Below are positions 5,311-49,636 of a stretch of 64,000 nt of DNA, one piece after another; position 1 is the first letter of the stretch, and each line of letters opens with the position of its first letter. Source of the DNA: Candidatus Kerfeldbacteria bacterium (lineage in GTDB: Bacteria; Patescibacteriota; Patescibacteriia; SBBC01). Where the stretch lies: NCBI GenBank assembly GCA_016207275.1, contig JACQPY010000012.1, positions 1,706 to 65,705 of the forward strand, given 5' to 3'. The translations under genes were made by a program, and so were the position numbers. A model generated the notes under the pieces. The model was not told where the DNA came from. It was given only the letters and a program-made list of their open reading frames with translations, and did no database searches.

Positions 5311-5400
5311 GGGTTAGGTTGCTAGGGCCATTAGAAGAGTGGTTAGTGGTTAGTAGGGAGTAGTGAGCATGAGGTGTTTGGTGTAAGAAGGTCAGTAGCA
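5296..5400. repeat. Degenerate TTAGG/GTTAG purine-rich tandem repeat tract overlapping the lspA stop codon
   Basis: gttaggtagttaggggttaggttgctagggccattagaag...ggttagtggttagtagggagtag. Same family as the tracts at 7024-7068, 7454-7500 and 51172-51262. Confidence 0.5.
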
Positions 5401-5513
5401 GGGGATGAATACAAGAATTGTTCATCGGGCAACAAGGGCTTGACAGGTTGACTGGCATGGTCTAGGCTTTACCGTAGACATTCGCGTGGCGCTGATTGGA
5501 GCCGCGCGTTTTC

Positions 5514-7028
5514 ATGCTTGCCCGCGTTACGACCGCGGCGGTGGTCGGAATCGAGGCCGAACCGATTACCGTTGAGGCCGACATTACCAGCAACGTGCCG
5601 AAGTTCTTCATGGTCGGTTTGCCGGATACCGCGGTGACCGAGGCGCAAGAGCGCATCCGTTCAGCCATTAAGAACACGCCGGGTGTTGACTGGCCGTTGC
5701 AGCGAATCACCATCAACCTGGCGCCGGCTGACCTGCGCAAAGAAGGGACGGGTTTTGATTTGGCGTTGGCGATGGCGATCGTTTGTGCCCGCGGTGACGC
5801 ACCGCTGCCTCCCGACAGCACCTGCTTTCTCGGTGAGCTAAGCTTAGAAGGGAAGCTGCGACCGACCAGCGGCGTCCTGCCGATTGTCGCCTGTTTGCGC
5901 GACCGCGGCGTCGACACGTTTATCGTGCCTGAGCCGAATGCGGCCGAGGCGGGGTTGGTCCACGGGGTAACCGTTTTTCCGGCGCAAACCCTCCGCGACG
6001 TCGTCCGCCACGTCCGCGGCAGGCGATTACTCGATCCGTACGTGCCGACGGCGTCGACCGTCGCGGCCTCGGCGCCGGGCGTTGATCTGGCTGATATTGC
6101 CGGACAGCCGCAGGCCAAGCGCTGCCTGGAAATCGCCGCGGCCGGCGGCCACAACGTCCTGTTGTCCGGGCCGCCGGGCTCAGGCAAGACCCTGCTGGCC
6201 CGGGTCTTATCGGGCATTTTACCGCCGCTGACCGATCCGGAAGCCTTGGAAGTAACCAGGATTTACAGCGTCGCCGGCCTGGTTGATCCCGATCAGCCGC
6301 TCCTGGTCGAACGTCCATTCCGCAGTCCGCACCATACGGCCTCAACCGTGGCTGTGGTCGGCGGCGGATCGTCGCCTCGGCCCGGCGAAATCACGCTGGC
6401 GCATCGCGGCGTTCTGTTTTTGGACGAATTTCCTGAGTTTCCTCGGGCCGTCCTGGAAGCGCTGCGTCAGCCGCTCGAAGACGGGTTTGTCAGCGTCAGT
6501 CGGGCCCAGGCCAGTGTTCGGTTTCCGGCTCGCTTCACGCTGTTGGCCAGTCAAAACCCTTGTCCGTGCGGCTACCTCGGCGATTCGGCGCACCGTTGTC
6601 GTTGCACGCCGTCGCAACTCGAACGCTACCGCCGGCGCGTATCCGGGCCGTTGCTTGACCGGATCGACTTGCACTGTCTCGTGCCGCGGCTGCCGCCCGA
6701 GGATTTGGAAGCAAAAGTGAAGTCAGAACCGTCAAGCGCGGTTCGCGATCGCGTCGTGCTGGCCCGAAAACGGCAGCAGCAGCGGTTCGTCGGCACCGAG
6801 CTGATTGCCAATGCGGAAATGCGGTTGGTCGAGTTGAAGCATTACTGCGCCTTGGATGACGAAACGTTGCAGCTATTGCGGTCAGCGGCCAGTGTGTTGC
6901 AGCTGTCCGGCCGCGCCTACCATCGGGTGATGCGCGTGAGTCGGACGATTGCCGATTTGGAAGGTGCTGAGCGAATTGACAGTCAACACGTGGCCGAGGC
7001 GTTGCAGTATCGGCAGCGGGCTGGGTAA
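5514..7028 (+). CDS. yifB: YifB/ComM family Mg-chelatase-like AAA+ ATPase
   Basis: N-terminus MLARVTTAAVVGIEAEPITVEADI, Walker A LSGPPGSGKT, C-terminal Mg-chelatase ChlI-like domain. An upstream TTG at 5496 is possible, but ATG 5514 matches the family N-terminus. Confidence 0.9.
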   Translation: MLARVTTAAVVGIEAEPITVEADITSNVPKFFMVGLPDTAVTEAQERIRSAIKNTPGVDWPLQRITINLAPADLRKEGTGFDLALAMAIVCARGDAPLPPDSTCFLGELSLEGKLRPTSGVLPIVACLRDRGVDTFIVPEPNAAEAGLVHGVTVFPAQTLRDVVRHVRGRRLLDPYVPTASTVAASAPGVDLADIAGQPQAKRCLEIAAAGGHNVLLSGPPGSGKTLLARVLSGILPPLTDPEALEVTRIYSVAGLVDPDQPLLVERPFRSPHHTASTVAVVGGGSSPRPGEITLAHRGVLFLDEFPEFPRAVLEALRQPLEDGFVSVSRAQASVRFPARFTLLASQNPCPCGYLGDSAHRCRCTPSQLERYRRRVSGPLLDRIDLHCLVPRLPPEDLEAKVKSEPSSAVRDRVVLARKRQQQRFVGTELIANAEMRLVELKHYCALDDETLQLLRSAASVLQLSGRAYHRVMRVSRTIADLEGAERIDSQHVAEALQYRQRAG

Positions 7029-8103: not shown

Positions 8104-9441
8104 ATGCAGGTCACCCCAGGCATTTTTAAAACCTACGACATTCGGGGGATTTGGGGGAAAGACCTGACGCCCGAAATTGCGAAGGCCATCGGCAAGGCTT
8201 ACGCTACGTTTTTGCAACCGAAACGGATAGTCTGTGGCCACGACGTGCGGAACTCGAGTCCGGCTCTATCCGAAGCGTTGATGGATGGAATGAGCAGCGG
8301 GGGGGTCGAGGTGACGGATATCGGCCTGGTCACCTCCGACGCGCTGTACTTCGCCGTTGGCAAACACGGATTTGACGGCGGCGCGATGGTGACCGCGTCA
8401 CACAACCCGCCGGAATGGAATGGGGTCAAGTTGACGCGGGATCGAGCCATTCCGATTGTTGGTGACGAGAATAAAACGATCGGAAGAATTGTTGAGCGAG
8501 AATCATTTGCATCCGTCGATGGACCGGGAAAACGATTGTCGTTCGACATTGCGGCTCAGTATATTGCCCAGGTCTTGTCCTTCAGTACGCATGAGGCCGG
8601 TCGATCGATGAAGGTCGTCATTGATGCCGGTAACGGAACAGTTATTCCCTTTCTACCAGCGATCATGGCCAAATTGCCCTTTGCCTGGGAAGGCATGAAC
8701 ATGACGCCGGACGGAAATTTCCCGGGACGCAATCCGAATCCGCTGGCCGAGGGGGCGCTCGACGGTTTGCAGCGGAGGATTGTGGCCACCACGGCCGACG
8801 TGGGGGTGGCCTTCGACGCCGACGCTGACCGAATGTTCTTCTTGGACGAGCATGGGGAACGAGTGCTCGGTGATGTCCTGACGGCGCTCTTGGCCAAGCA
8901 GTTCCTGCGGCAGCATCCCGGCTCGACGATCGTCTATAATCTCATCAGCTCCCACATGGTTCCCGAAGAAATCCTCAAAGCCGGCGGGAAACCTATTCGA
9001 TCAGCCGTTGGTCATGCGCATATGAAGCCGGCGATGCGACAGCGCCAGGCTGTGTTCGGTGGCGAAATTTCCGGGCACTACTTCTTCCGCGACCACTACT
9101 ACGCCGATTCCGGCCTGATTGCCATGGTGGTGGGCTTAAGTTATTTGAACCAGCAAGACAAACCATTATCCGAGCTGGTCCGCGAGATTGACGTTTACGC
9201 TCACACCGCCGAGGTCAACTCCGCGGTTGAGGACATTCCTGGCACACTGGCAAAAATCAAAGCCGCCTACCAGGGTGGCCAGCTCGACGAAACCGACGGG
9301 GTGACGGTGGAGTACCGTGACTGGTGGTTCAACGTCCGGCCGTCGAATACCGAGCCCTTGCTGCGCTTGAGCGTGGAAGCAAAAACGCCGGCGGAGATGG
9401 AGCGGCGGCGGGATGAGATTTTGCGAATTATTCGCGGTTAG
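8104..9441 (+). CDS. manB: Phosphomannomutase/phosphoglucomutase (alpha-D-phosphohexomutase family)
   Basis: 445 aa. TASHNPPEWNG active-site serine loop, GDxDxDR metal-binding loop (FDADADRMF) and sugar-binding loop of PGM/PMM enzymes. Confidence 0.9.
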   Translation: MQVTPGIFKTYDIRGIWGKDLTPEIAKAIGKAYATFLQPKRIVCGHDVRNSSPALSEALMDGMSSGGVEVTDIGLVTSDALYFAVGKHGFDGGAMVTASHNPPEWNGVKLTRDRAIPIVGDENKTIGRIVERESFASVDGPGKRLSFDIAAQYIAQVLSFSTHEAGRSMKVVIDAGNGTVIPFLPAIMAKLPFAWEGMNMTPDGNFPGRNPNPLAEGALDGLQRRIVATTADVGVAFDADADRMFFLDEHGERVLGDVLTALLAKQFLRQHPGSTIVYNLISSHMVPEEILKAGGKPIRSAVGHAHMKPAMRQRQAVFGGEISGHYFFRDHYYADSGLIAMVVGLSYLNQQDKPLSELVREIDVYAHTAEVNSAVEDIPGTLAKIKAAYQGGQLDETDGVTVEYRDWWFNVRPSNTEPLLRLSVEAKTPAEMERRRDEILRIIRG

Positions 9442-9481
9442 AAAAAGTACCGGCCGGAATCTCGCGACCTCACGCGAGTTG

Positions 9482-9529
9482 ATGGAGCAAGAGCGGGACG
9501 AGGTACTGGCGATGATTCAGCGGCAGTAG
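9482..9529 (+). other. Short duplicated relic of the manB 3' end (encodes MEQERDEVLAMIQRQ*, compare manB C-terminus MERRRDEILRIIRG*)
   Basis: Sequence similarity seen by eye 40 nt downstream of the manB stop. Confidence 0.35.
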
Positions 9530-11131: not shown

Positions 11132-14116
11132 ATGGAAAAGTACAACCACCGCGCGGTCGAAGCGAAGTGGCAGCAGCGTTGGGAAGAGGCGGGAGTGTTT
11201 GCGGCGAAGGACCTCACCCCCGCCCGCTCCGCCGTGCGGAGCATGGCGGGCGGGTCGGCCTCCAGCAGCTCCCACCCCCTCAGCGCTTCGCGCAGCTCCC
11301 CCTCAGGCAGGGGGAGCAACTCCGTGTACGTCCTCGACATGTTTCCCTACCCGTCGAGCGACGGATTGCATGTCGGACACCCCGAGGGTTACACGGCCAG
11401 TGACATTGTGGCGCGCTACATGCGGATGAACGGCAAGAACGTCCTGCACCCGATGGGCTGGGACGCATTCGGTTTGCCAGCGGAAAACGCGGCGATCAAG
11501 AAAGGCGTCCACCCGCGGATCGTGACTGAGCAGAACGTCAACAATTTCAAGCGGCAGATCAAGTCGCTGGGCTTTTCCTACGACTGGTCGCGCGAAGTCA
11601 ACACCACTGATCCTCGGTATTACAAGTGGACCCAGTGGATTTTTCTGCAGCTCTTCAAGATGGGCTTGGCTTACGAAGCCGAGGTGCCGATTTGGTGGTG
11701 TCCGAAAGACAAAACCGGACTGGCGAATGAGGAGGTGGTGAATGGTTGTTGTGAGCGGTGTGGAACGAAAGTGGAACGAAAAAAACTGCGTCAATGGTTA
11801 TTGCGAATCACGAAGTACGCCGATCGCTTGCTCGCCGGTTTGGAAAAACTCGATTGGCCCGAGTCAATTAAGGCCTTGCAGCGGAATTGGATTGGGAAGA
11901 GCGAGGGAGCGGAGGTGGTGTTTGAAGTAGGAAGTATGGAGTATGAAGTATGGGGTAAGGGAGGCGAAAGGGTTGCTGATACCATGCAGTTTGTTCCGGA
12001 GCTAGTGCCGTTGGTGCTCAACGGTTCGAAGTTCAAGACGTATCGCTTTTTTGAACCGAAAAATGTCCGTAAGGGTGATAGTGTTGAGTTTATTAATGCA
12101 TCCACAAAAGAGAGTTTTGCGATGGCGCGGATCACCAAGGTGGAAAAACGAAATTTCATCGACATTCCGCTGCACGACAAAGGCCATGAGCCAGATGTTT
12201 CCATTGAAGCGAGAAGGAAAAGGTACGAAGGGTACTATAAGAAAATAGTGAATAATGATACTCCGGTATGGATTTACTCGTTTATTTTGGAAAAAACGAA
12301 GGGAAAAGCGAGATTCCGGATCAAGTCCGGAATGACAGATAAGAAAAAGCATAGTGTGCCTGTCTTCACCACCCGTCCAGACACGTTGTTTGGCGCGACG
12401 TACCTCGTGCTCTCGCCGGAACATCCGCTCGTGGACATGATTACGAGCGAGAAACAGAAGAAGGCGGTGGAGAAATACAAGAAGGATGTCGCAAGCAAGA
12501 CGGACCTTGAACGTACTTCTCTGGAAAAGGAAAAAACTGGCGTGTTCACTGGCGCGTATGCGGTGAATCCGGTGAACAACGAGAAAATTCCAGTTTGGAT
12601 TGCCGATTACGTGTTGATGTCCTACGGCACCGGCGCGATTATGGCCGTGCCGGCGCATGATGAGCGGGATTATGAATTTGCCAAGAAGTTTAAGTTGCCG
12701 ATTTTGAAAGTAATCAAGCCGCCGTCGGTCATGCCGAAGAACCCCGTGGAAACCATCATCAGTCCTGGAGGGTGGGGACATCTCGGCAGCGAACTTGAGA
12801 GCGATTGCTGGACCGGCGAAGGAACGATGGTGAACTCAGGGAAGTTTGATGGCCTCTTGAGCGAAAAAGGGCGGAAGAAAATCATCGAGTGGCTCGAACA
12901 CGAAGGTAAAGGAAGATTTGCCGTCAACTACAAACTCCGCGACTGGGTGTTTTCACGGCAGCGTTATTGGGGCGAGCCGATTCCGCTGGTGCACTGTCCA
13001 AACCACGGCGTCGTGCCAGTGCCGGAAGATCAATTACCAGTGCTGTTACCGGACGTGGAGAAGTACGAGCCGACGGGGACTGGAAAGTCTCCTCTGGCAG
13101 GGATGAAGGAATGGGTGCAAACGCAATGCCCGCTGGGAGACGGTCCGGCAGAGCGCGAAACCAACACCATGCCGCAGTGGGCTGGTTCGTGCTGGTATTA
13201 CTTGCGCTACCTTGATCCGAAGAACGAGCAGGCGTTGGCCGATCCGGAAACAATGAAGCAGTGGCTGCCGGTTGATGTGTACGTCGGTGGGGCAGAGCAC
13301 GCCGTGCTGCATTTGCTGTACTCACGTTTCTGGCATATGGCGCTCTACGATGCTGGCGTACTTCCAAAGGACGTTGGCGATGAGCCTTTCATAAAATTGA
13401 AGAACCAAGGCCTCATCCTAGGTCCGGACGGCGAAAAAATGTCGAAGTCGCGCGGTAACGTCATCAACCCCGACCCATTGATAGCCAAGTTCGGAGCAGA
13501 CAGCTTCCGGATGTACGAAATGTTCATGGGGCCGTTTGAAGACGCCAAGCCGTGGAGCACGAACGGGATCGTGGGGGTGAGGAGGTTTTTGCAAAGAATC
13601 TGGAATATAGCGCATAGCGGTAGAGTTCAAAAAACAACACTTATAGAAGACCCGAATCTTCGTAGACGGCATATATATACAGCTTCCATTGAATATGGTA
13701 TCGATAGTTTCAAATTTAATACTTGTGTTAGTGAGTTAATGAAGTGGAGCAATAGTTGGGATGAACCAACAAAAGATGCGTACGTCGATAAAGACGAATT
13801 CGAAGTTTTCTTAAAGCTTCTTTCGCCCTTTGCTCCGCATATTTCAGAGGAGCTTTGGTCAAAGCTAGGACACGGAACATTGCTAGTGCAGGAGGAATGG
13901 CCAATATTCAATCGTGATTTAATAAGACCTAGCGAAGTCAGGATCGCAATTCAAGTCAACGGTAAATTGCGGGGAACAGTAACAATGCCAAGCGGTTCCG
14001 CAAAGCATGATGTGGAAGCGGCGGCCAAAGCCGAGCCGAATGTGGCGAAGTATTTGAACGGTAAGCCGAAGAAGGTAGTATATATAAAAGATCGTTTACT
14101 GAATTATGTAGTCTAA
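11132..14116 (+). CDS. leuS: Leucyl-tRNA synthetase carrying two in-frame insertions (low-complexity Ser/Arg-rich N-terminal insert; ~144-aa ASCH/PUA-like insert before the editing domain) and an AT-rich 3' portion
   Basis: 994 aa. YVLDMFPYPSSDGLHVGHPEGY (HIGH region), VFTTRPDTLFGATY editing domain, KMSKS as KMSKSRGN, C-terminal IQVNGKLRG. Bacterial LeuS is typically ~800-870 aa. Confidence 0.95.
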   Translation: MEKYNHRAVEAKWQQRWEEAGVFAAKDLTPARSAVRSMAGGSASSSSHPLSASRSSPSGRGSNSVYVLDMFPYPSSDGLHVGHPEGYTASDIVARYMRMNGKNVLHPMGWDAFGLPAENAAIKKGVHPRIVTEQNVNNFKRQIKSLGFSYDWSREVNTTDPRYYKWTQWIFLQLFKMGLAYEAEVPIWWCPKDKTGLANEEVVNGCCERCGTKVERKKLRQWLLRITKYADRLLAGLEKLDWPESIKALQRNWIGKSEGAEVVFEVGSMEYEVWGKGGERVADTMQFVPELVPLVLNGSKFKTYRFFEPKNVRKGDSVEFINASTKESFAMARITKVEKRNFIDIPLHDKGHEPDVSIEARRKRYEGYYKKIVNNDTPVWIYSFILEKTKGKARFRIKSGMTDKKKHSVPVFTTRPDTLFGATYLVLSPEHPLVDMITSEKQKKAVEKYKKDVASKTDLERTSLEKEKTGVFTGAYAVNPVNNEKIPVWIADYVLMSYGTGAIMAVPAHDERDYEFAKKFKLPILKVIKPPSVMPKNPVETIISPGGWGHLGSELESDCWTGEGTMVNSGKFDGLLSEKGRKKIIEWLEHEGKGRFAVNYKLRDWVFSRQRYWGEPIPLVHCPNHGVVPVPEDQLPVLLPDVEKYEPTGTGKSPLAGMKEWVQTQCPLGDGPAERETNTMPQWAGSCWYYLRYLDPKNEQALADPETMKQWLPVDVYVGGAEHAVLHLLYSRFWHMALYDAGVLPKDVGDEPFIKLKNQGLILGPDGEKMSKSRGNVINPDPLIAKFGADSFRMYEMFMGPFEDAKPWSTNGIVGVRRFLQRIWNIAHSGRVQKTTLIEDPNLRRRHIYTASIEYGIDSFKFNTCVSELMKWSNSWDEPTKDAYVDKDEFEVFLKLLSPFAPHISEELWSKLGHGTLLVQEEWPIFNRDLIRPSEVRIAIQVNGKLRGTVTMPSGSAKHDVEAAAKAEPNVAKYLNGKPKKVVYIKDRLLNYVV

Positions 14117-14161
14117 TTATTTACTCATCACTTATCAATTAATGGGCGATCCATATGAATC

Positions 14162-14725
14162 ATGAATAACGAAGGCGGCGAGTCAAAGTTTGCTGACTGG
14201 AAGGCGCCGGACGAAGAAGCCGAGCGAAAACCATTTGGCGAAGCAGACGAAGCCGAACAAATTGAACGTACCAAACATCTACGTGAAACTTTCAGCCGCG
14301 AGTCTTCTTTGGGTGAATTTTGGGGCAATGCATATAAGTATTCAGAAAAACTACCAATTTTAGGGAAAACTCCTGATGAGGCAAGAAAATTAATCGCCGA
14401 AGCCGCCAGCGGAGTGAAATTGATCGAACAGGCACTCGAAACATTCAAATCAATCAAATTGCGCGAAACGGGCCAAGAGAATTACTTGATCCTTGGCGTG
14501 AACGAACTACAAGAAACAAACAACTGGCAATCTTTTTTGCAGGCCGGGAAACTCGACGTGCCGAAACTCAAGGAACTTATCCGCTGGTTGCTCGAAAGCC
14601 ACCGCCTCAAAGGGGCTGAGTTGGGTCGGCCGAGTGAACTCAAGCCCTCTGATATTGAGGAAATCTTTGATGATATGGACTATGTCTTGAAAAAAGTGAA
14701 CGATTATCTGCCGAGCAAAAAATGA
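14162..14725 (+). CDS. Hypothetical protein in a low-GC island
   Basis: 187-aa acidic protein with no recognisable motifs. About 40% GC versus ~60% for the surrounding chromosome. Followed by a conserved ~45-nt 3' element. Confidence 0.5.
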   Translation: MNNEGGESKFADWKAPDEEAERKPFGEADEAEQIERTKHLRETFSRESSLGEFWGNAYKYSEKLPILGKTPDEARKLIAEAASGVKLIEQALETFKSIKLRETGQENYLILGVNELQETNNWQSFLQAGKLDVPKLKELIRWLLESHRLKGAELGRPSELKPSDIEEIFDDMDYVLKKVNDYLPSKK

Positions 14726-14763
14726 TTTTCATGAATGATCAGTTGATTAATTTTGTGGTGTAG
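14723..14763 (+). repeat. Conserved 3' element copy 1 (TGATTTTCATGAATGATCAGTTGATTAATTTTGTGGTGTAG)
   Basis: About 80% identical to copy 2 at 15552-15597. Starts at the stop codon of the preceding gene and ends 2 nt before the next ATG. Confidence 0.55.
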
Positions 14764-14765
14764 TT

Positions 14766-15554
14766 ATGGAGTACAAAGGCGAACTGCCACAGAATCCAGA
14801 CCAAAAAGACTCATCGGAACTTGAAGCCGAGCGTCAACGGATTCGCGAAGAAATCCAATTAGAGCTAGAACAGCTCCCCGATGATGAGTCTGGACGTGAG
14901 CGTCGTGAGTTCCTCACTCGAGAGCCAGCATTTTATGCTTATGGTGGAAAGAGTTTCGAAGGACGCCGTCAAACCCCAGGATTCAGAATATCCAGTGCCG
15001 ATGCAAGAATGGGGGTGCTGCAAGATGTTTACGGCCTAAGGAGAGACCATGTTACCTTTGGGGTCGGACGGGGCTGGAATAGAAAGTACATAATTCATCG
15101 TGAACTTCAAAATCCGGATTATCGCGGCGGGTACCCATACACCTTCCTCTTCGATCCCGGTGAAGAGACCTGGCGTCTGTATGGGCAGAATGGAGCTTTG
15201 CTGCTTAGAAACGTTCAGCGCGACACGGAGATTCATGAATGGTTTACTCTCAAACCAGAAAAGATGACCGAGGCGCGCATGCAAGAATACGTTGAACGCC
15301 TTAACCAAGCCGATCGATCGGTTGAACCTCAGTCAAATGCCAGCTTGGAACAATTTCTCAAGACTTCAGGCCATCAAACGGACGTTCAACGGGTTGGATC
15401 GCGAGAAATGGCAGAACCAAACGTCGAACAGATGGCCGCTGCCCTGGCCGCGATGCCCGAATCAGCACGGAGGGAGAGTACGTGGCTGATTGGTGGAGGC
15501 AGTCTTCATGGTGAAGAATTGGGGGCACGAATAGTGTGGGACCCGAGAAAGTGA
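14766..15554 (+). CDS. Hypothetical protein in a low-GC island
   Basis: 262 aa, no recognisable motifs. Followed by copy 2 of the 3' element. Confidence 0.5.
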   Translation: MEYKGELPQNPDQKDSSELEAERQRIREEIQLELEQLPDDESGRERREFLTREPAFYAYGGKSFEGRRQTPGFRISSADARMGVLQDVYGLRRDHVTFGVGRGWNRKYIIHRELQNPDYRGGYPYTFLFDPGEETWRLYGQNGALLLRNVQRDTEIHEWFTLKPEKMTEARMQEYVERLNQADRSVEPQSNASLEQFLKTSGHQTDVQRVGSREMAEPNVEQMAAALAAMPESARRESTWLIGGGSLHGEELGARIVWDPRK

Positions 15555-15597
15555 TTTTCGTGCGTGAAGGATAAGCTGATTAATTTCGTAGTGTGAA
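15552..15597 (+). repeat. Conserved 3' element copy 2 (TGATTTTCGTGCGTGAAGGATAAGCTGATTAATTTCGTAGTGTGA)
   Basis: See copy 1. Followed immediately by a ~70% GC palindrome-dense segment. Confidence 0.55.
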
Positions 15598-15920
15598 GCG
15601 CCGCTCCCACCACCCCCGCCCGCGTAATTCCGTCCCTCGACCTCCCGATGGGATCGAGGTCGCCCCGAGCAAGGTCGAGGGGCGACAAGCTCGGGACGGA
15701 AAACGCGAGGCGGCCCCTCCCCCTTCGGCCTCCCGTTCAGGGTCTGAGGACCCCTCAGGGTCTCGAACGACGAGCTCATCTCGATGCCGAGCCCTCGATG
15801 CCGAGGCAGGGCTGAGAGGTCGGGCAGGAGGGGGAGACCACCCCGTCCCGACCGCGGAGCGCGTCGGGACACCCCTCCTTACAAAGGCGGAGATGAGATG
15901 AAGGTCGGCACCTCATCACA

Positions 15921-16475
15921 ATGGCATCATTAAAACAAGCGGTATCTATTATCAAAGCGGGAGGAGTAGTGGCCTATCCAACCGAGTCCTTTTATGCGCT
16001 GGGCGCGGACGCGACGAACCCCGCCGCGATTGCTCGGGTATTTCGCTTAAAAGGGCGGGACAAAAAACCGATCGCCTTGGTCGCATCGGACGAGCAACAA
16101 GTATCCAGGTTTTTTGCAGCTGATAAAGTGGAACGCGAAGTGGCCCGCTGGCATTGGCCAGGCGCGCTGACGATTGTCTTGAAACCAAAGAAGAGATTGG
16201 CAGCCAGCGCGCTTGGGTCACTGCGCATTGGTGTGAGAGTGCCGAAGCACAAGCTCGCGGCGGGGTTAGCCCGCCTGGTTGGAAAACCGATTACCGCGAC
16301 CAGCGCCAATCCGTCTGGCGGGCGGCCGACGAAGTCGGCCCGTCGCGTCCGAGCCTGGTGGCCGAACGTGCCGGTGGTCGCCGGAGCGTGCGGGCGCGCC
16401 ACTAAGCCGTCGACCGTAGTGGCCGTCGACGGTGGACAATTGATAACGTTACGCGCCGGCGCGACAAAAATCTAA
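15921..16475 (+). CDS. tsaC: L-threonylcarbamoyladenylate synthase (YrdC/TsaC family)
   Basis: 184 aa. VVAYPTESFYALGADATNP and KGRDKKPIALV motifs of the YrdC/Sua5 fold. Confidence 0.85.
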   Translation: MASLKQAVSIIKAGGVVAYPTESFYALGADATNPAAIARVFRLKGRDKKPIALVASDEQQVSRFFAADKVEREVARWHWPGALTIVLKPKKRLAASALGSLRIGVRVPKHKLAAGLARLVGKPITATSANPSGGRPTKSARRVRAWWPNVPVVAGACGRATKPSTVVAVDGGQLITLRAGATKI

Positions 16476-40571: not shown

Positions 40572-42326
40572 ATGATCGATTTTGTTGAGCTTGAGCAGTT
40601 GGATTTCCGGGGAGGGGATGCCCTTACCAAACTTGATGATGTACTGTCCGAGGTCGCGGCCTATGCCGAGGCCCGAACCGCAGTCCAGGTGGCGCAGATC
40701 TTGCAACGCCAGCGGCAGGCCGATCCCGAACTGGCCAGAACGATTGATCCGTACCTGATTAAATTTCGCGCCCTGGCCTTGCCGCTGCTGACTGACCGCG
40801 AAATTTTAGCCATGTTCGACCAGTTGGTTACCATCGTCGCCGACGAGCGGATCGGCCTGTACGAGCGGCTGCGGGCCAGGTTGCTGGCCCTGCCCGTAAC
40901 GCGTCGGACCACCCTGGCGCAGCAGATTCTGGGCGTACTTCGGCAGAGTCGCCAGCCCTTAGGGTCAGACACGGTCGGTTCCTGGATCCAGCTCTTCGAA
41001 GCACGAGGCGGACAGCGCAGTCCACAGGCCTTGTTCCAACTGCCGGAGTTTAAACGCCTGAATGACCAGGACGACCACAGCCTGCGTCACATCGTCCACG
41101 TGGTTAGCTTGCTGGCTTCGCCCGAGACGATTGAGCTAGCCGTGCCGCCACCGGTACCAACGGCTGAATCGGCCCCGACGGCGACCGCGGTTCCGCCGGC
41201 GCCGCCAGCCAACCTGCCAGTCGCCCCCGCTCCAGCTGACGTCCCGGTCGGGGCGGCGCCGGTCCTGAGGCCGAGCAGGGTTGAACCCCCGGCCGCTCGG
41301 CCGCCGCCGCTTTCCCGCACTGATCACGGGCCGACGATGGCCTCGGTCATGGCCCGACTGCAGCAGTCGCAGCAGGCGACGGCCGCGATCCCGCCGACGG
41401 TCGCCCACCTGACGCCGGACGATGAGCAGGAAATCCGGCAGCAGGCTGACGTCTTAGCCGGATTGCCAGCCGGTCCGAATGTCCACGACGTGGTCGCCGA
41501 CGCGATTAACCGTTTGATCCGCGAAAACAATTTGATCTTCACCGACGACAACCTGCGACGACGGTTCGTGACCATCATGACGGCGCGGATCAAAGACATC
41601 CGAACTTCGAACGAGACCATTGAACTACTGGTCCGGGCGGAGAAAATAGGCGGTTTGGGTTTTGAATCAACGCTGGCCGATAAGCTGGTCGCCGCCGCCA
41701 GCCTGGAAGCCGCTCGCTTCCATAACCACGACGAAGTCCGACGCCTGGTCACCCAGCAAGCCGTTAAGCAGTCGTCGCCGCTGCCGTCACCGCCGCGGGT
41801 ACCGGCCGCCCCGCCGCCGTCGAGCGCGCCGCTGACCGCGCCGGTTCCGCTTCGCGCCACCATGCCGACGCCACCACCGTCACGGCCGTCGCCGGCACTC
41901 GAGCCGACCGCAGCGGTTCTGACCCCGCCGCTGCCGACCGCCGCTACTAGGCCGGCCCAGCCGGAACGGGCAACGGTGGCAGATATTCGCGGCCGGTCGC
42001 GTCTGGTCGGACCGGTGGAAGAGTTGCGCGGTCTGACCGTGGTCGATTTCCGACGTCTCGGTGCTGATCCGGTGGCCTGCGTTCGGCGGGTCTACGAAAA
42101 AATCCAACAGCTGGCTCGCGAATCGTTCACCAAGCGAGCCGACGGTATCAAAGCCTGGCGCGAATCAGAACCCCATCGCCTGTACGTCGCCATGGGTCAA
42201 CAGGGTTTACTGTCGTCGAAATCGGTCCGCGAGGTCCTGTATGCTCGACAGCAAGCCGGCCAAGCAGCTTTGACCGAACAGGAGTTTACCTTGATCGCCG
42301 ATCTCAATCGTAAACTCAGATTCTAG
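40572..42326 (+). CDS. Hypothetical protein with long Pro-rich linkers; N-terminal domain paralogous to the 38428 gene
   Basis: 584 aa. PPVPTAESAPTATAVPPAPPANLPVAPAPADVP and PLPSPPRVPAAPPPSSAPLTAPVP low-complexity linkers. Confidence 0.5.
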   Translation: MIDFVELEQLDFRGGDALTKLDDVLSEVAAYAEARTAVQVAQILQRQRQADPELARTIDPYLIKFRALALPLLTDREILAMFDQLVTIVADERIGLYERLRARLLALPVTRRTTLAQQILGVLRQSRQPLGSDTVGSWIQLFEARGGQRSPQALFQLPEFKRLNDQDDHSLRHIVHVVSLLASPETIELAVPPPVPTAESAPTATAVPPAPPANLPVAPAPADVPVGAAPVLRPSRVEPPAARPPPLSRTDHGPTMASVMARLQQSQQATAAIPPTVAHLTPDDEQEIRQQADVLAGLPAGPNVHDVVADAINRLIRENNLIFTDDNLRRRFVTIMTARIKDIRTSNETIELLVRAEKIGGLGFESTLADKLVAAASLEAARFHNHDEVRRLVTQQAVKQSSPLPSPPRVPAAPPPSSAPLTAPVPLRATMPTPPPSRPSPALEPTAAVLTPPLPTAATRPAQPERATVADIRGRSRLVGPVEELRGLTVVDFRRLGADPVACVRRVYEKIQQLARESFTKRADGIKAWRESEPHRLYVAMGQQGLLSSKSVREVLYARQQAGQAALTEQEFTLIADLNRKLRF

Positions 42327-42328
42327 CC

Positions 42329-42841
42329 ATGCCGCAGTTTATCGTCCCGCAGTTCATCGATGTCGAGGACAAAATCATTGGTCCGATCTCGGTCCGCCAA
42401 TTCCTGACTTTCCTGGTCGGGGCCGCGCTCATTTTTGCCAACTATCAGATTGTCTACAAAGTTTTGTACCCCAATTTCTGGGTTTTTGCCATTAGTTCAA
42501 TCTTCATTTTCGCCGTGGCCGGCACCTTTGCCTTTTTGAAAATAAACGGCCGAACCTTCCACTACTTTCTACTCAACTTATTTGTCACTATGCAAAAGCC
42601 GCGGCTACGAGTCTGGAATAAACGACTGCGCCGCAGCGATTTCCTCACCAAGGAAGAAGCGGTTGAGATCGCCGCCCCCCTACCGGTCAAAGCACCCCTG
42701 ACCATGCGCAAGCTGACCGAGCTGTCGTTGATCGTCGATACCGGCGGCGCCTACCGCGAAGAGCTTCCCGAAGAGTCCACCCCGCCGTCCACAACCACTA
42801 AACCCGGCACGGTCACTGACATCTTCGCCGACCTCGCCTAG
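42329..42841 (+). CDS. PrgI-like (VirB3-like) small membrane protein of Gram-positive/CPR-type T4SS
   Basis: 170 aa. N-terminus MPQFIVPQFIDVEDKIIGPISVRQFLTFLVGAALIF matches the characteristic PrgI-family start, followed by two TM helices. Confidence 0.5.
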   Translation: MPQFIVPQFIDVEDKIIGPISVRQFLTFLVGAALIFANYQIVYKVLYPNFWVFAISSIFIFAVAGTFAFLKINGRTFHYFLLNLFVTMQKPRLRVWNKRLRRSDFLTKEEAVEIAAPLPVKAPLTMRKLTELSLIVDTGGAYREELPEESTPPSTTTKPGTVTDIFADLA

Positions 42842-42845
42842 CGAT

Positions 42846-43547
42846 ATGGTCAAAACGAAAGTCGTCAAACCGAAACCCAGCGTCAAAATTCAGAAGAAAG
42901 CTGAGTCGACTCAACGGTACCTCGACATCCTCGAGATTAAAGATGACGTGGTCGTGCTCAAGGATGGTTCGGTCCGCGCGGTCGTCTTGGTCGCATCGAT
43001 TAACTTCGACCTGAAGAGCGAGGAAGAGCAAGCGGCGGTCATTTCCAGCTACGTCCAGTTTCTCAACGCGATTGATTTTCCCCTCCAGATCGTAGTCCAA
43101 TCGCGCAAGCTCAACATTGACAGCTACTTGGATAAACTCAAGGACCTCGAAAAGCAGCAAACCAACGAGCTGCTGAAGCAACAAACGGTTGAGTACCGCC
43201 AATACATTCAAGAGTTGGTCGAAATCGCCGACATCATGACTAAGCGATTTTACGTGGTGGTGCCGTACTCGGAACAGTCGGGACGACCAAAGAGGTTCTG
43301 GTCGCGAGCGGTCGACGCTTTTTCGCCGACCAACGTGATCCACCTCAAACAGAAGAAGTTTGAAGAGTTCCGGACCGAGCTCTTCAAGCGGGTCGAGTAC
43401 GTCATCGACGGCCTGGCTTCGGCCGGGCTAAAATCGGCGGTGCTCGATACCCAGAGCTTGATCGAGCTGTACTACAACACCTACAACCCCGAGACCTCGG
43501 CTGAACAGCATTTGGTTGAGGTCGGGAAGATCCAATTAGAAGCTTAG
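42846..43547 (+). CDS. VirB4-family N-terminal domain encoded as a separate ORF (first piece of a split VirB4)
   Basis: 233 aa. YLDILEIKDDVVVLKDGSVRAVVLVASINFDLKSEEEQAAVISSYVQFLNAIDFPLQIVVQSRKL follows the conserved N-terminal pattern of Gram-positive VirB4/TcpF/PrgJ-type ATPases. Confidence 0.5.
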   Translation: MVKTKVVKPKPSVKIQKKAESTQRYLDILEIKDDVVVLKDGSVRAVVLVASINFDLKSEEEQAAVISSYVQFLNAIDFPLQIVVQSRKLNIDSYLDKLKDLEKQQTNELLKQQTVEYRQYIQELVEIADIMTKRFYVVVPYSEQSGRPKRFWSRAVDAFSPTNVIHLKQKKFEEFRTELFKRVEYVIDGLASAGLKSAVLDTQSLIELYYNTYNPETSAEQHLVEVGKIQLEA

Positions 43548-43662
43548 AGCTTGTAGCGGTTAGCTTTTAGGGACCCATCGAATAACCACTTGCCTGATGA
43601 AAATTAATCACTCTTCGCTACCGCTACCAGCTACCAGCTAAAAGCTATCAGCTTCTTCAACC

Positions 43663-45564
43663 ATGGCTGACATCAACCTATCCAAACTTAAAGCTGGTCA
43701 GACCCTGCCGACCAAGCAGGAAATCCAGCGTGAACGACCGCCGGCGCCGGTCAGCGCCGCCGAGCTGATCGAGGCCGAGCGGATCTACCGTCGCGGCGTC
43801 ATTTCAGTCCGTGACCTAATCGCCCCGGCGGCCCTGCGCGTCGATACCAACTTCATTCAGCTTGGCGCCAAGCACGTTCGGACCCTGTTTGTCGTGACCT
43901 ACCCGCGTTACATTGCGGTCGGCTGGTTTGCGCCGATCATCAACTTCAATTCGCCGCTTGACATCGGCATGTTCTTCTACCCGGTCGAGTCGAAAATCAT
44001 TTTGAAGCAGCTGAAGAACAAGGTTGGTGCGCTCGAGGCGCAAATCCTGTCCGACGCCGAGAAGGGCGCGCCGCGTGACCCGATCCGCGAGACGGCGCTG
44101 CGCGATATCGAGAAGCTGCGCGACGACCTGACCCAAGGCACCGAGCGGTTTTTCCAGTTCGCCCTCTACGTTACGCTCTACGCCAACTCGCGCGACGAGC
44201 TCGATCGCTTGACCGAAAAGATCGAGGGCTTGTTCGGCTCGCGGTTGGTCTACAGCAAGCGGGCGTTATTCCAGGCAGAGCAAGGATTTGTCTCGACCGT
44301 GCCGCTCGGCCTTGACCAACTACTGGTCACCTTCAACATGAACTCCAGCCCGGTGGCCAGTTCGTTCCCCTTCATCTCCAGCGACTTGACCAGCGACAAC
44401 GGCATTCTCTACGGCATTAACCGACACAACAACTCGTTGATTCTGTTCGATCGGTTTAGCTTGCAGAACGCCAATTTTACGGTTTTTGCCACCTCGGGCG
44501 CCGGCAAGAGTTACGCGGTTAAGTTAGAAATTCTCCGTTCGATGATGTTCGGCACTGATATGATTGTCATCGATCCGGAGAACGAGTACAAGTATTTATC
44601 GGACGCGGTTGGCGGTACCTACGTCAGCATTTCGCTTAACTCCGATTCGAAAATCAACCCGTTTGACTTGCCGCGAGCCGTCCACGGCGATGAAAAGCCG
44701 GCCGACATCATCCGCTCCGCGGTCATTACCCTGAAATCGCTCATTCGCTTGATGCTGGGCGAGCTGACTAACGAAGAAGATTCGATCATTGATCGAGCGC
44801 TGTTAGAAACCTACGCCAAGAAAGACATCACCCCGGACAGTGACCTGGCGACGGTTGAACCGCCACTGATGAAGGACTTTGAAGAGGTCCTGGCCGGCAT
44901 GGTCGGGGCGGAAAATCTGGTCCAGCGGCTGAAGAAGTACACCGAAGGCACCTTTGCCGGCTTGTTCAACAGCCCAACCAACGTCGAGGTCAACAACCAG
45001 CTGATGGTTTTCTCGGTTCGGGATTTGGAAGACGAGCTGCGGTCGATCGGCATTTCGATGATTGTCAGCTACATTTGGAACGTCGCCCGCTCCAAGCTCA
45101 AGAAGCGCATTCTGACGATTGATGAGGCTTGGTGGCTGATGCAGAACGAAGATTCGGCCAAGTTCATCTACTCGCTGGTCAAGCGGGCCCGTAAGTACTA
45201 CCTCGGCGTGACCACCATCACCCAGGACGTCAATGATTTCCTCCGCTCGCCCTACGGTCAGGCGATCGTCAACAACTCGGCCTTGCAGCTGTTGATGAAG
45301 CAGTCGCCGGCCGGCATCGATATTGTGGCCAAAACCTTTTTGCTGACCCAGAGCGAGCGCTACCTCTTGCTCGAAGCTGGCGTCGGCGAGGGGATCTTCT
45401 TTGCCGGCGCCAAGCACGCCGCCATCAAGGTGGTGGCCAGTTACACCGAGGATCAAGTGATTACCTCCGACCCGCGGCAGCTGCTGGAGATCGAGGAAGC
45501 CAAGAAGGAGTTTGAAGAGTCGCTGGCCCGCGGTGAGGTTCCAACCACCGCCGATGTCCGCTGA
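43663..45564 (+). CDS. virB4: VirB4/TrbE/CagE-family T4SS ATPase (second piece; contains the ATPase domain)
   Basis: 633 aa. DLIAP...YIAVGWF, DIGMFFYP, Walker A FATSGAGKSYAV, IVIDPENEY, TQ sensor region. Confidence 0.85.
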   Translation: MADINLSKLKAGQTLPTKQEIQRERPPAPVSAAELIEAERIYRRGVISVRDLIAPAALRVDTNFIQLGAKHVRTLFVVTYPRYIAVGWFAPIINFNSPLDIGMFFYPVESKIILKQLKNKVGALEAQILSDAEKGAPRDPIRETALRDIEKLRDDLTQGTERFFQFALYVTLYANSRDELDRLTEKIEGLFGSRLVYSKRALFQAEQGFVSTVPLGLDQLLVTFNMNSSPVASSFPFISSDLTSDNGILYGINRHNNSLILFDRFSLQNANFTVFATSGAGKSYAVKLEILRSMMFGTDMIVIDPENEYKYLSDAVGGTYVSISLNSDSKINPFDLPRAVHGDEKPADIIRSAVITLKSLIRLMLGELTNEEDSIIDRALLETYAKKDITPDSDLATVEPPLMKDFEEVLAGMVGAENLVQRLKKYTEGTFAGLFNSPTNVEVNNQLMVFSVRDLEDELRSIGISMIVSYIWNVARSKLKKRILTIDEAWWLMQNEDSAKFIYSLVKRARKYYLGVTTITQDVNDFLRSPYGQAIVNNSALQLLMKQSPAGIDIVAKTFLLTQSERYLLLEAGVGEGIFFAGAKHAAIKVVASYTEDQVITSDPRQLLEIEEAKKEFEESLARGEVPTTADVR

Positions 45565-45640
45565 TCCCGTTAGAAAGCCTTTCGCTACAACGAGAAATAG
45601 TCGACTCTTATGAAACAACACAGGCTGACTTTCTAACGGG

Positions 45641-46183
45641 ATGATGCGACGCTGGCTGATTATCAGCGCGTTGTTGGCGGCGGCGGGAGCGGCGGCGCTG
45701 GTCGTCGTGCGACAGCCGAAGACCGGCCCGGCGACGAATACGGCGCCGATTTCTACGGTCAACCGAACAGTCATCCCTGAAAACACCAACGCCGAACCCG
45801 CGCCAACGACCGACCAACTTTTAGCCACGGCGCGAGTTTTTGCCGAGCGGTTCGGTTCGACCTCGAGCGACGCGCCGACCGCGCACCTCCAGGCTGTCCT
45901 ACCGTTTTGCAGCTCCGCTTTGACCCAGTCATTTCGCCGATTAATCAACCAGCCGACCAACTCGCCGGGCAACGCCACCCGTACGACCAGTCGTGCCTTG
46001 GCTTTCGCAACGCCGTCGGTCGATGAACGGCTTGGGTTAGCGGAGGTGGTAGTTACGCTTCAGCGGCAGGAGCAAATCGGGACTGAACCAGCGACGATTT
46101 ACAACCAAGAGCTGGCGCTCCAGTTCGTTCGCGAAAGCGGCGCCTGGAAAGTGAACGTCGCGACCTGGGGTAAGCAATCGTAA
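45641..46183 (+). CDS. Hypothetical secreted/membrane-anchored protein
   Basis: 180 aa. N-terminal hydrophobic segment LIISALLAAAGAAALVVV. Confidence 0.45.
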   Translation: MMRRWLIISALLAAAGAAALVVVRQPKTGPATNTAPISTVNRTVIPENTNAEPAPTTDQLLATARVFAERFGSTSSDAPTAHLQAVLPFCSSALTQSFRRLINQPTNSPGNATRTTSRALAFATPSVDERLGLAEVVVTLQRQEQIGTEPATIYNQELALQFVRESGAWKVNVATWGKQS

Positions 46184-46189
46184 CGTCGC

Positions 46190-46894
46190 ATGGCAGTCAA
46201 AGCCTCCAACCCGAAGCAAGCGATCAAGGAACAAGAACGTCGGTTCCGCGAAGAAACGCGGCGCCTGCGTCAGGAGCCAGCCACCGGCAGCGAGGGGTAC
46301 ACTAACGTCTACCTTAAAGAACCTGTCGAGCCCGAAGAGGAGCAGCCAGCCGATGATCAAGCTTCCGGCCAAGTTTCCACAGCTCGATTTCCTCGGCGGC
46401 AGTCGTTCCGGCCAGCCAGCGTTGAAGAAGAACCTTCGCCCACCCCCAAAACAAGCGGCCAGACCGGGCCAGGCCAAGGACCTGAGCCTGCACCCACCGC
46501 CGCTGAGCCGAGCGGACGGACTTCAACTGAGCAGCTGTCTCGCGGCGCCCAGTTTGCCGAGCGAACCAGGGCTTTGCAACAAGCGGCCGGCACGGCTCAG
46601 CAAGCGGCTCAGACTGAGCGTACGGTGGCAGCGACTGCCCGCGGAATAGCGGCGACTGCCCGGGGCGCCGCAGCGGTAGGACGGGGCATCGCCTTACTTT
46701 TCTCTCCACCAACCTGGCCGGTCTGGATCGGCGTGCTGATCGCCGCCAGCATCTTTTTCGTCGTCCTCTTGGTGCTGGCCGCGGCCTGCATTCCACTCGG
46801 CACCGGCGAAGGATTGACCGAAAAAGCTGCGCTGGGGAGCGCCATCCTGAGCCTGCGATTGGCGCTGGGAATTGATTGCGGCGGGTCGCCATGA
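46190..46894 (+). CDS. Hypothetical protein with a low-complexity N-terminal half and a C-terminal two-helix membrane anchor
   Basis: 234 aa. WPVWIGVLIAASIFFVVLLVLAAACIPLG. Possibly pilin-like. Confidence 0.4.
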   Translation: MAVKASNPKQAIKEQERRFREETRRLRQEPATGSEGYTNVYLKEPVEPEEEQPADDQASGQVSTARFPRRQSFRPASVEEEPSPTPKTSGQTGPGQGPEPAPTAAEPSGRTSTEQLSRGAQFAERTRALQQAAGTAQQAAQTERTVAATARGIAATARGAAAVGRGIALLFSPPTWPVWIGVLIAASIFFVVLLVLAAACIPLGTGEGLTEKAALGSAILSLRLALGIDCGGSP

Positions 46895-48381: not shown

Positions 48382-48396
48382 TCCTGCCCCTTCACC

Positions 48397-49635
48397 ATGG
48401 CTATTAACTGGAAACGACTGCTGCTGGTGCTCGGGTTCCTCTTGGTTACCATTGGTATTGGCGTGACGATTTACTTCGTCTTCTTCCGCAATATCTTCGG
48501 TCCGCCGGCCGCTAACCAGAACATCAACGGCGTCATTTTCCCGCTGGCGAATGAAAACCGCAATGCCGGCGTGGGACCAGCTAACGTTAATGCCTTGCCA
48601 AACGTCAACGCGGCGGTCGGTCAACCGCGGCCAGTGGCTGACGGCGGGCCGACGCAGGTGGTGCCGATCGTCAGCACGCTGCCGGGCGGGGCGACGCTGG
48701 CCAACAACGGCCGTGATCTACTCTACTACGATCCGCGGACCGGCAAGTTCTACCAAATTTCTCCCGACGGCCGGACCCGGACCGAGCTGACGCCGGACCG
48801 CTATCCGGCGGCCGACAAGGTGACCTGGGCGCCGCTTCGTGACAAGGCGGCGATCGAGTTTCCCGACGGCAGCAAGTTCATCTACGACTTTCGACAGCAG
48901 AAGCAGTATACCCTGGCCCCGGAAATGGAAGAAATCACTTTCTCGCCGACCGGCGACAAGATTTCGTTCAAGTTCATTGGCGACGACCCGGCTGACCGGT
49001 TGTTGGTGACGGCAAATTTCGACGGCACCGGCGCGACCACCATTGAGCCGCTGGCCGACAAAGCTGACCAGTTTGACGTTAACTGGTCACCGCTCGGCAA
49101 CGTCGTCGCTACCTTCCGCGAATCGATCGATGCCGATCGGCAGCGGGTCATCCCGATTGGGTTATTGGGGGAAAATTTTTCCTCCTTTAACGTCCCTGGT
49201 CGCGGTTTCCAACACATCTGGTCGACCGACGGCAGTAACATTTTGTTCAGCGTCTTCCGCAAAGACACCGGCTACAATCCAAACTTGTACATTGCCAGCG
49301 GGCGGACCGAATCGCTCGGCAACAACATGATTAACCTGGACTTGCAAACGTGGCCGGACAAGTGCGTCTTCGGGTCGGCGGCCGCCTTGTTCTGCGCCGT
49401 GCCGCAGTACTTGGAACAGGGAACCGGCTTGTTCCCGAACCTGGCCAGCGAAGTGCCGGACGACTTCTACCGAATCGACTTGGCCACTGGTCAGAAGCAG
49501 CTGATCGCCCGGCCGGTCAATGCCGACGGCGAGTCGTCTTACACCGCCTCGCAGCTGATACTGTCAGCCGATGAGACCGTGCTGTACTTCTTTGACCAGC
49601 GGACCAATCAGGTCCAGAAAATTCAGTTGAAGTAG
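48397..49635 (+). CDS. Membrane-anchored beta-propeller (TolB/PD40-like) protein
   Basis: 412 aa. N-terminal TM LLLVLGFLLVTIGIGVTIYFVFF. Repeated hydrophobic/Gly/Asp beta-strand patterns. Confidence 0.45.
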   Translation: MAINWKRLLLVLGFLLVTIGIGVTIYFVFFRNIFGPPAANQNINGVIFPLANENRNAGVGPANVNALPNVNAAVGQPRPVADGGPTQVVPIVSTLPGGATLANNGRDLLYYDPRTGKFYQISPDGRTRTELTPDRYPAADKVTWAPLRDKAAIEFPDGSKFIYDFRQQKQYTLAPEMEEITFSPTGDKISFKFIGDDPADRLLVTANFDGTGATTIEPLADKADQFDVNWSPLGNVVATFRESIDADRQRVIPIGLLGENFSSFNVPGRGFQHIWSTDGSNILFSVFRKDTGYNPNLYIASGRTESLGNNMINLDLQTWPDKCVFGSAAALFCAVPQYLEQGTGLFPNLASEVPDDFYRIDLATGQKQLIARPVNADGESSYTASQLILSADETVLYFFDQRTNQVQKIQLK

Positions 49636-49636
49636 C

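Follow-up and report, generated by a model that had tools for sequence, protein, structure and literature searches.

Apparent serial insertion of single-gene units with substitute leuS tails in a Candidatus Kerfeldbacteria genome

The 64-kb stretch of DNA analyzed here, referred to as the window, originates from a metagenome-assembled genome (MAG) of Candidatus Kerfeldbacteria, which belong to the Patescibacteria or candidate phyla radiation (CPR). Between the leucine--tRNA ligase gene leuS and tsaC, it contains two small open reading frames (ORFs), ORF1 and ORF2, and three versions of the leuS 3' end, termed u0, u1, and u2. Comparison of this locus with its relatives shows serial insertion at one point of the leuS tail, replacement of the tail by the incoming DNA, and retention of the old tails: two small DNA pieces from other Patescibacteria integrated one after the other at a K|V codon junction located 39 nt before the leuS stop. 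Each piece consists of a surrogate leuS tail and one promoterless ORF. Cassette 2 (u1 and ORF2) entered first and separated leuS from its native tail u2, which kept its place ahead of tsaC, and cassette 1 (u0, a 45-nt leader, and ORF1) entered second at the same point, displacing u1. Only the last 13 leuS codons and the stop (14075-14116) were replaced, and leuS retained a working end throughout, provided by the newest arrival.

Results

Tail copies downstream of leuS

A preliminary description of this DNA had reported an element of about 45 nt behind each of the two ORFs. Both ORFs are present in the ORF list (Table 1), and a pattern search and a repeat finder located the element at 14719-14763 and 15548-15597, with about 80% identity between the copies, a 4-nt indel, and zero matches expected by chance. 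When translated in the proper frame, both copies encode a LeuS C terminus. The u1 copy reads KMIFMNDQLINFVV* (the asterisk stands for the stop), and u2, including the preceding codon, reads KVIFV[+CGTG]KDKLINFVV*, in which the frameshift is due to a 4-nt tandem duplication, CGTG, at 15563-15566. The present leuS gene ends in KKVVYIKDRLLNYVV (also given as NGKPKKVVYIKDRLLNYVV). Since the closest public LeuS proteins end in ...EPKKVIFVKDKLINFVV, the repaired u2 corresponds to the consensus of the clade.

These assignments were scored with a position-specific scoring matrix (PSSM) built from 143 other LeuS tails, using 85,628 other 14-mers from the six frames of the window as the null. Repaired u2 reached 37.1 bits (27.3 bits for its intact last nine residues alone), u0 reached 31.9 bits, and u1 reached 10.7 bits, as compared to 6.3 bits for the best of the other 14-mers. 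At the DNA level, blastn aligned u1 with the leuS tail of the related contig L082 (91% identity over 45 nt, E 3e-9) and the segment 15548-15639 with the leuS end plus tsaC start of contig L083 (84% over 95 nt, E 1e-18); without CGTG, u2 is 93% identical to the L082 tail and 89% identical to that of L083. The elements align collinearly with the leuS coding sequence. The conserved element thus represents displaced old leuS 3' ends and is neither a regulatory motif nor an attC site. A weak third copy that had been suspected immediately behind the leuS stop, at 14117-14161, did not withstand testing (p = 0.68 against u2 and 0.04 against u1); the true third copy is the leuS end itself, at 14075-14116, recognizable at the protein level. 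An estimate of purifying selection from u1 and u2 was abandoned, with too few substitutions between them to be usable (four nonsynonymous and three synonymous).

Origin and order of the tails

Close relatives were found by protein look-ups, and a contig scan with exact LeuS peptides gave none. The comparison of the leuS-tsaC interval that the preliminary description had proposed was carried out with these relatives, and the site is empty in eight of them (L082, L083, L084/85, L113, L196, L197, and L198). All of them have the gene order M23 peptidase (minus strand), leuS, tsaC, MFS, and rsmA, and leuS abuts or overlaps tsaC. A gap of 157 nt separates the two genes in L086. The frame that starts in the window at GTG 15593 begins with VKRRSHHPRPRNSVPR and matches the start of the L083 TsaC, VSSRGSHHPRPRNSVPR. 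Because the u2 stop overlaps this ancestral tsaC start, u2 is the original tail in its original place, and the ancestral leuS ended in ...KKVIFVKDKLINFVV*, its stop overlapping the tsaC start.

The last 39 nt of leuS show 77.5% nucleotide identity among nine relatives. Identity to these nine tails is 82% for u2 and 77% for u1 and is 58% for u0, which is 56-69% identical to tails of the clade. Upstream of the tail, the window is 63% identical to the relatives, which are 61% identical to each other. Identity breaks best at -36 nt, which is the K|V codon junction that also opens the relics. From the difference between 58% and 77.5% and from the position of the breakpoint at the relic edge, it follows that the working tail u0 is the foreign one and that the older tails were pushed downstream. 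An insertion into the 3' end of leuS that brings a replacement end, as suggested in the preliminary description, is therefore retained in this interpretation, whereas the replacement of a C-terminal domain is not, as only 13 codons and the stop are concerned.

Organization of the locus

The features of the locus are compiled in Table 1. ORF1 and ORF2 are tightly packed, co-oriented, single-ORF units. ORF2 starts 2 nt past the u1 stop, and both ORFs terminate at the out-of-frame TGA of the (A/G)TGATT sequence that opens the next relic, so that the ORF1 stop lies inside u1 and the ORF2 stop inside u2. ORF1 ends in ...CCGAGCAAAAAA, and u0 starts with GTAGTATAT.... No promoter or terminator match was found on the plus strand for ORF1 or ORF2, and scans of the window with Rfam and for tRNAs gave no matches. 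Contigs from two other sequencing runs are 100% identical to the window over 13513-15687 and 14383-15743 and span every junction; because two independent assemblies agree across all junctions, the arrangement is not an assembly chimera.

Table 1. Features of the leuS-tsaC region (positions are those of the window)
Feature	Position	Strand	Remarks
leuS	11132..14116	+	994 aa; Pfam tRNA-synt_1, editing, Anticodon_1, and ASCH; annotated as leucine--tRNA ligase; platform gene
Low-GC3 3' part of leuS	13570..14074	+	Ancestral to the clade and outside the inserted DNA
u0, present leuS tail	14075..14116	+	VVYIKDRLLNYVV*; foreign, came with cassette 1
ORF1 leader	14117..14161	+	Within cassette 1; resembles the 5' leader of the P0002 cassette
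ORF1	14162..14725	+	187 aa; cassette 1 cargo; deposited hypothetical protein HY567_01945
u1, relic leuS tail	14722..14763	+	MIFMNDQLINFVV*; supplied by cassette 2 and displaced by cassette 1
ORF2	14766..15554	+	262 aa; cassette 2 cargo; in ORF list; deposited hypothetical protein HY567_01950
u2, original leuS tail	15551..15596	+	VIFV[+CGTG]KDKLINFVV*; frameshifted; ancestral place before tsaC
Ancestral tsaC start and GC-rich structured spacer	15593..15920	+	GTG at 15593; 4-nt overlap with the u2 stop
tsaC	15921..16475	+	Sua5/YrdC family; Pfam PF01300; next gene after leuS in relatives

The GC-rich spacer between u2 and tsaC (15597-15920, 324 nt) has an RNA fold z score of -3.4 relative to shuffled sequence. 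It occurs only once in the window and matches no Rfam family. The initial stretch of about 40 nt is conserved in L083, and the spacer contains a 102-aa ORF that runs from the ancestral tsaC start, out of frame with the present tsaC. LeuS itself has two further insertions. A low-GC ASCH domain is inserted at residues 285-385 (window 11985-12290), and in related CPR LeuS proteins similar positions are occupied by other domains, namely, NUDIX, alpha/beta hydrolase/Ser_hydrolase, or Ham1. The second insertion, near the N terminus (SAVRSMAGGSASSSSHPLSASRSSPSGRGSNS; window 11212-11326), comprises about 35 aa, has a high GC content of about 0.70, aligns with L083 only, and is absent in L082, L084, and L086. 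Elsewhere, a type IV secretion-like cluster at 40572-51169 encodes a PrgI-family protein, a VirB4/TraG-type ATPase, two proteins with T4SS-pilin domains, an SLT transglycosylase, and a weak Mobilization_B match.

The two cargo ORFs

A single homolog of ORF1 was found among 5.8 billion proteins, namely, P0002, with 54% identity. Since synonymous sites between the two are saturated and the ratio of the proportions of nonsynonymous and synonymous differences (pN/pS) is 0.38, ORF1 is regarded as a real gene. P0002 sits on a 3-kb metagenome contig (L081, 1-2992) that corresponds to a classical integron cassette array with at least 5 attC sites. Every small ORF of L081 is followed by an attC-like site, ...AACAGCGCGTA...TACGCGCRAACGTT..., whose R'' can pair with the beginning of the cassette to which it belongs. 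The spacer in front of ORF1 (14117-14161) resembles the 5' leader of the P0002 cassette (p = 0.013), and a leuS relic in the 3' untranslated region of that cassette was not significant (p 0.05-0.5).

No relatives of ORF2 emerged from a word-indexed search, and 184 remote ones were identified by an exhaustive HMMER search. They share a domain of about 205 aa, often located at the N terminus of proteins of 700-1100 aa. The 184 representatives (among proteins P0124-P0272) show the motifs AYGG, RGGYxYT, DPGE, WNxA, WLxGGG, and VWDP, and P0124 contains the domain twice. Some relatives stand alone, among them P0125, P0127, P0130, and P0132. The ORF2 domain has no Pfam, NCBIfam, PADLOC, or PDB match, and profile searches of the cargo with Pfam, PHROGs, NCBIfam, PADLOC, and PDB provided no information on function. 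The AlphaFold model of ORF1 was too poor for searching (predicted local distance difference test score, pLDDT, of 53).

The cargo C termini were compared with the leuS sequence. P0002 ends in ...CCCGAGAGAAATGATTT, and relatives of ORF2 end in VWDPKKE* or VWDPDE*. The compared ends are ...AAATGATTT for ORF1 and P0002 versus ...AAAGTGATTT for leuS and GACCCGAGAAAGTGA for ORF2 versus GAACCCAAAAAAGTGA for leuS, with a single-comparison p of about 0.02-0.06. The possibility that the ORF1 C terminus derives from LeuS was rejected, since P0002 carries an equivalent C terminus in an unrelated context. Similar lengths (187 aa versus 182 aa) and weak tblastn extensions had hinted at ORF1 and ORF2 being decayed copies of the LeuS C-terminal part; this was rejected as well (hhalign probability 0.1%; DNA similarity ends at the relic), as was the notion that both ORFs are paralogs of a duplicated unit (hhalign probability 0.4%). 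No mutual homology was detected among ORF1, ORF2, and the LeuS C-terminal part.

Second tails at other leuS loci

Contig L111 encodes the LeuS that is closest in core sequence, and its leuS is followed after 1 nt by an ORF for a 159-aa membrane protein, a relic tail, and tsaC. The stop of this ORF is the TGA of the (A)TGATTTT that opens the relic tail MIFVKDRL...LVNYVV*, and the K|V junction is the same as in the window. The L111 relic tail is split by a 106-nt element (5742-5847) with perfect 16-nt terminal inverted repeats (ACCCCGTTAGAGGTGG / CCACCTCTAACGGGGT), which resembles a miniature inverted-repeat transposable element. The CPR contig L190, which is low in GC, carries a toxin-antitoxin pair (DUF433 and the PIN-like DUF5615) enclosed by a 59-nt direct repeat of the leuS tail; the copies are 97% identical, with TAG as the leuS stop and TGA as the relic stop. 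The regions considered on this contig (4176-4859 and 7501-8338) also include a gene for an IS200-like Y1 transposase, located 130 nt ahead of leuS. Direct repeats of the leuS 3' end thus flank each unit in the window, and the L190 repeat and the L111 relic show the same arrangement. L112 (8474-9430) has an APH-family phosphotransferase (kinase) gene between leuS and tsaC, the start of which overlaps the leuS stop, and a relic tail was not detectable on this contig.

Two further tail-like sequences are cargo-less. L034, from a Verrucomicrobiia MAG, has a mini-ORF, MKKLVVATAKMVNIVARHV, 20 nt past the leuS stop (5374-5433) that resembles the LeuS tail RKVIVVPGKLVNVVAS (PSSM, 19 bits). Within the window, a second tail-like sequence, ELMEQERDEVLAMIQRQ*, with a hairpin (9476-9529) follows about 35 nt after a glmM-like gene (8104-9441, tail AEMERRRDEILRIIRG*); it is a possible cargo-less relic, and its E value of 0.007, obtained with 90 ORFs tested, is not significant by itself.

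Discussion

Joining mechanism and alternatives

As to how the pieces were joined, we lean toward a reading in which small circular units, each made of a tail and an ORF, integrate at the leuS tail, which serves as the attachment site. Such circles would recombine at the tail either through a recombinase that is encoded elsewhere and acts in trans or through Campbell-type recombination over short homology, and ORF1 and ORF2 would be read from the leuS transcript. This reading is favored because the foreign patch in leuS and the relics begin at one and the same position, because L111 has the same junction, and because integrase-less cis-mobilizable elements (CIMEs; PMC5704250) accrete at gene 3' ends with this very architecture. 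The coincidence of the breakpoint at -36 nt with the relic edge is predicted by shared attachment-site boundaries and not by a free homologous crossover. An element-borne tail that restores leuS while the native end is displaced distally is also what the locus presents, u0 being foreign and u2 typical of the clade. That the sole homolog found for ORF1 is an integron cassette suggests that the cargo family is mobile elsewhere, which lends further support. The empty site of the relatives, the tight packing of mutually unrelated cargo, and the independent recurrences in L111 and L190 count in its favor as well.

Several observations weigh against the circular-unit reading. No integrase, transposase, or Xer gene was found in the window or, apart from the IS200-like gene of L190, in the examined flanks of L111 and L190; within the window, the absence of an integrase noted in the preliminary description holds for ORFs of at least 170 aa, none of which has a recombinase domain. 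Since no recombinase gene lies nearby, the enzyme is hypothetical. Hairpin folding of the tails is not seen (z of about 0), and neither a circular form nor a free attP was found in viral contigs or plasmids: scans of viral contigs for the leuS tail or the cargo gave chance matches or none, and tblastn against plasmids gave none. Among about 150 leuS loci, a second tail was present at only about 4. The boundary also varies, as the L190 repeat measures 59 nt and the others measure about 42-45 nt. Finally, the native ends of the two cargo genes have P-x-K-K-like codons similar to the leuS EPKK to the left of the junction, which points to microhomology-guided joining rather than to a sequence-specific recombinase.

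The latter point leads to the main competing explanation, homology-facilitated illegitimate recombination, which we consider possible but on balance unlikely. Linear Patescibacteria DNA in which the ORF already stood beside leuS would have been taken up, with homologous pairing in conserved leuS as the left anchor and microhomology in the recipient tail as the right join, so that neither a dedicated recombinase nor a mobile cassette would be required. The lack of a nearby recombinase would agree with this scenario, as would the 12-15 nt patches at the cargo ends, which belong natively to the cargo families and are like the leuS sequence that precedes the relic on its left side. The variation of repeat length by lineage (about 42-54 nt versus 59 nt) and the possible cargo-less "tail patches" behind the glmM of the window and the leuS of L034 also speak in its favor. 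However, the left crossover would have to match the left boundary of the relic exactly by coincidence, and four boundaries (u0, u1, u2, and the L111 relic) share one K|V junction. With its 56-69% identity to the tails of the clade, u0 offers little uninterrupted homology for an anchor, and there is no donor-derived tract upstream, as identity is normal (63% versus 61%) up to about 39 nt before the stop. This explanation also only pushes back the question of how the ORF came to lie behind a leuS tail in the donor.

If the leuS-tsaC junction had been duplicated in tandem in situ, for example through replication slippage or template switching, and filled later, all tails would be native in origin. 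The 97% identity of the L190 copies looks like a fresh duplication and fits this idea, but in the window it is the functional u0 that is most divergent and the relics that are typical of the clade, whereas a native tail under selection should show the opposite. Moreover, the nearest DNA matches of u0 are more distant loci and the cargo has homologs elsewhere, so we judge this origin to be very unlikely.

Even less credit is given to a single low-GC island of about 2 kb, starting at 13570, that would have replaced the whole anticodon-binding and C-terminal domain of LeuS. The sharp change in composition on which it is founded is real: GC content falls from about 0.53-0.55 to 0.37-0.45 at about 13570-13600, a drop whose position the preliminary description had noted, and within leuS the GC content at third codon positions (GC3) falls from 0.72-0.78 to 0.26-0.48. 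The abrupt return near 15598 was likewise recovered (0.69 at 15600), whereas the low GC reported for both ORFs applies to ORF1 (about 0.43-0.48) but not to ORF2, which has about 0.50-0.55 instead of about 0.40. However, leuS of L083 shows a GC3 drop from 0.95/0.85 to 0.33 at an equal codon offset, and L084 shows the equivalent drop at an equal offset; both lack an insertion, and in both leuS directly precedes tsaC. Atypical composition is thus not confined to the insertion-bearing genome. Because these insertion-free relatives show an equivalent drop, 13570-14074 is not part of the insertion, and the GC drop inside leuS is a genuine clade feature and not an island boundary. Nor has the C-terminal part of LeuS diverged from that of the relatives to an unusual extent: the ratio of C-terminal to core identity is 0.82, compared to 0.84 +/- 0.13 among relatives. 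The nucleotide identity between leuS and its relatives stays at a normal level as far as about 39 nt from the stop. These findings already contradict the island. As an observation in its own right, GC3 of the last about 180 leuS codons is far below that of the rest of the gene and its neighbors in several high-GC relatives, regardless of insertion; in L083, it is 0.33 in the 3' part of leuS versus 0.8-0.95 elsewhere.

Least credible is a degenerate integron array or integrase-less cluster with the 45-nt elements as attC sites: single, promoterless, co-oriented ORFs, each followed by a shared element, and an ORF1 homolog that is a genuine integron cassette would suit it, so that the cassette-array architecture proposed in the preliminary description stands, but an attC-like hairpin does not, since the elements are collinear copies of the leuS coding sequence, there is no intI in the window, and the elements fold no better than shuffled sequence (z of +0.3 to +0.7 as single strands, as opposed to -3.5 and -2.4 for the L081 attC sites, which fold well beyond it). 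When the tails of relatives are included and both strands are folded as single-stranded DNA, z ranges from -0.4 to +0.7.

Relation to known systems

Tandemly accreting elements that insert at the 3' end of a conserved gene, bring a substitute for that end, and retain the previous end as a direct repeat are of an already known kind. CIMEs and related integrative elements accrete in tandem at a conserved gene 3' end, as exemplified by the ICESt1/ICESt3-related elements at fda of Streptococcus thermophilus (PMC5704250). The leuS units share with CIMEs the insertion in the 3' end of a housekeeping gene, the supply of the end of that gene by the unit, the flanking att-like direct repeats of the gene end, the absence of an integrase from the units, and the stacking of several units at one site. 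They differ in that they are single ORFs of 0.6-0.8 kb, whereas CIMEs are decayed elements of several kilobases, in that no related integrase-bearing element was found, and in their patescibacterial (CPR) host.

Parallels also exist with integron cassette arrays. The leuS units are compact, promoterless, co-oriented, and single-ORF, and they are located behind a fixed platform; a short shared site follows each unit and overlaps the stop of its ORF, and the ORF1 cargo family also occurs as a true integron cassette on L081. In contrast to integrons, the leuS units share a site copied from leuS coding sequence instead of a hairpin-forming attC, and the leuS array in the window lacks IntI, attI, and Pc. 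Moreover, an essential gene receives a new end from the unit that arrived last.

The SCC (staphylococcal cassette chromosome) and pseudo-SCC islands of staphylococci are located at the 3' end of rlmH (orfX), where direct repeats of the target end lie between tandem elements, some of which have recombinase genes and some of which do not. SCC elements are far larger than the leuS units, have 15-18 bp repeats, and use Ccr serine recombinases, whereas no recombinase is known for the leuS units. Islands that target tRNA or tmRNA genes restore the gene, and the 3' end that they displace, 45-60 nt in length, is found at the distal border of the insert; the leuS target differs in being protein-coding, and the units differ in being miniature and integrase-less. 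A literature search for leuS as an integration site returned nothing relevant. What is new is the scale of a single promoterless ORF, the coding end of leuS as the target, the CPR host, the lack of an integrase-bearing relative, and the link of the cargo to a classical integron.

A much broader reading, which we regard as doubtful, is that Patescibacteria possess a previously undescribed gene-capture platform in which the last 40-60 nt of leuS serve as a fixed attachment site for miniature circular cassettes. Cassettes made of one ORF or a toxin-antitoxin pair and a leuS-tail mimic would be inserted, stacked, and exchanged, with the cellular recombination machinery or a recombinase from another locus carrying out the reaction. 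Such a platform would be an integron analogue on the coding end of an essential gene, with cargo shared with classical integrons, as in the case of ORF1 and P0002.

Implications

With respect to annotation, the proposed history explains the atypical C terminus of the working LeuS and warns against reading the GC drop in leuS as an island boundary. The diagnostic feature is a second LeuS tail downstream of leuS, and a search for it across metagenomes could bring to light the pool of cargo genes and, perhaps, the recombinase that is missing here. The genomes of CPR bacteria (Patescibacteria) are tiny, and their acquisition of accessory genes is poorly understood. If true, a recurrent insertion point in the coding end of an essential aminoacyl-tRNA synthetase gene, with single-gene units that bring their own replacement tail, tandem stacking, and occurrence in at least three lineages with unrelated cargo, would represent a concrete and searchable route of gene gain in the CPR.

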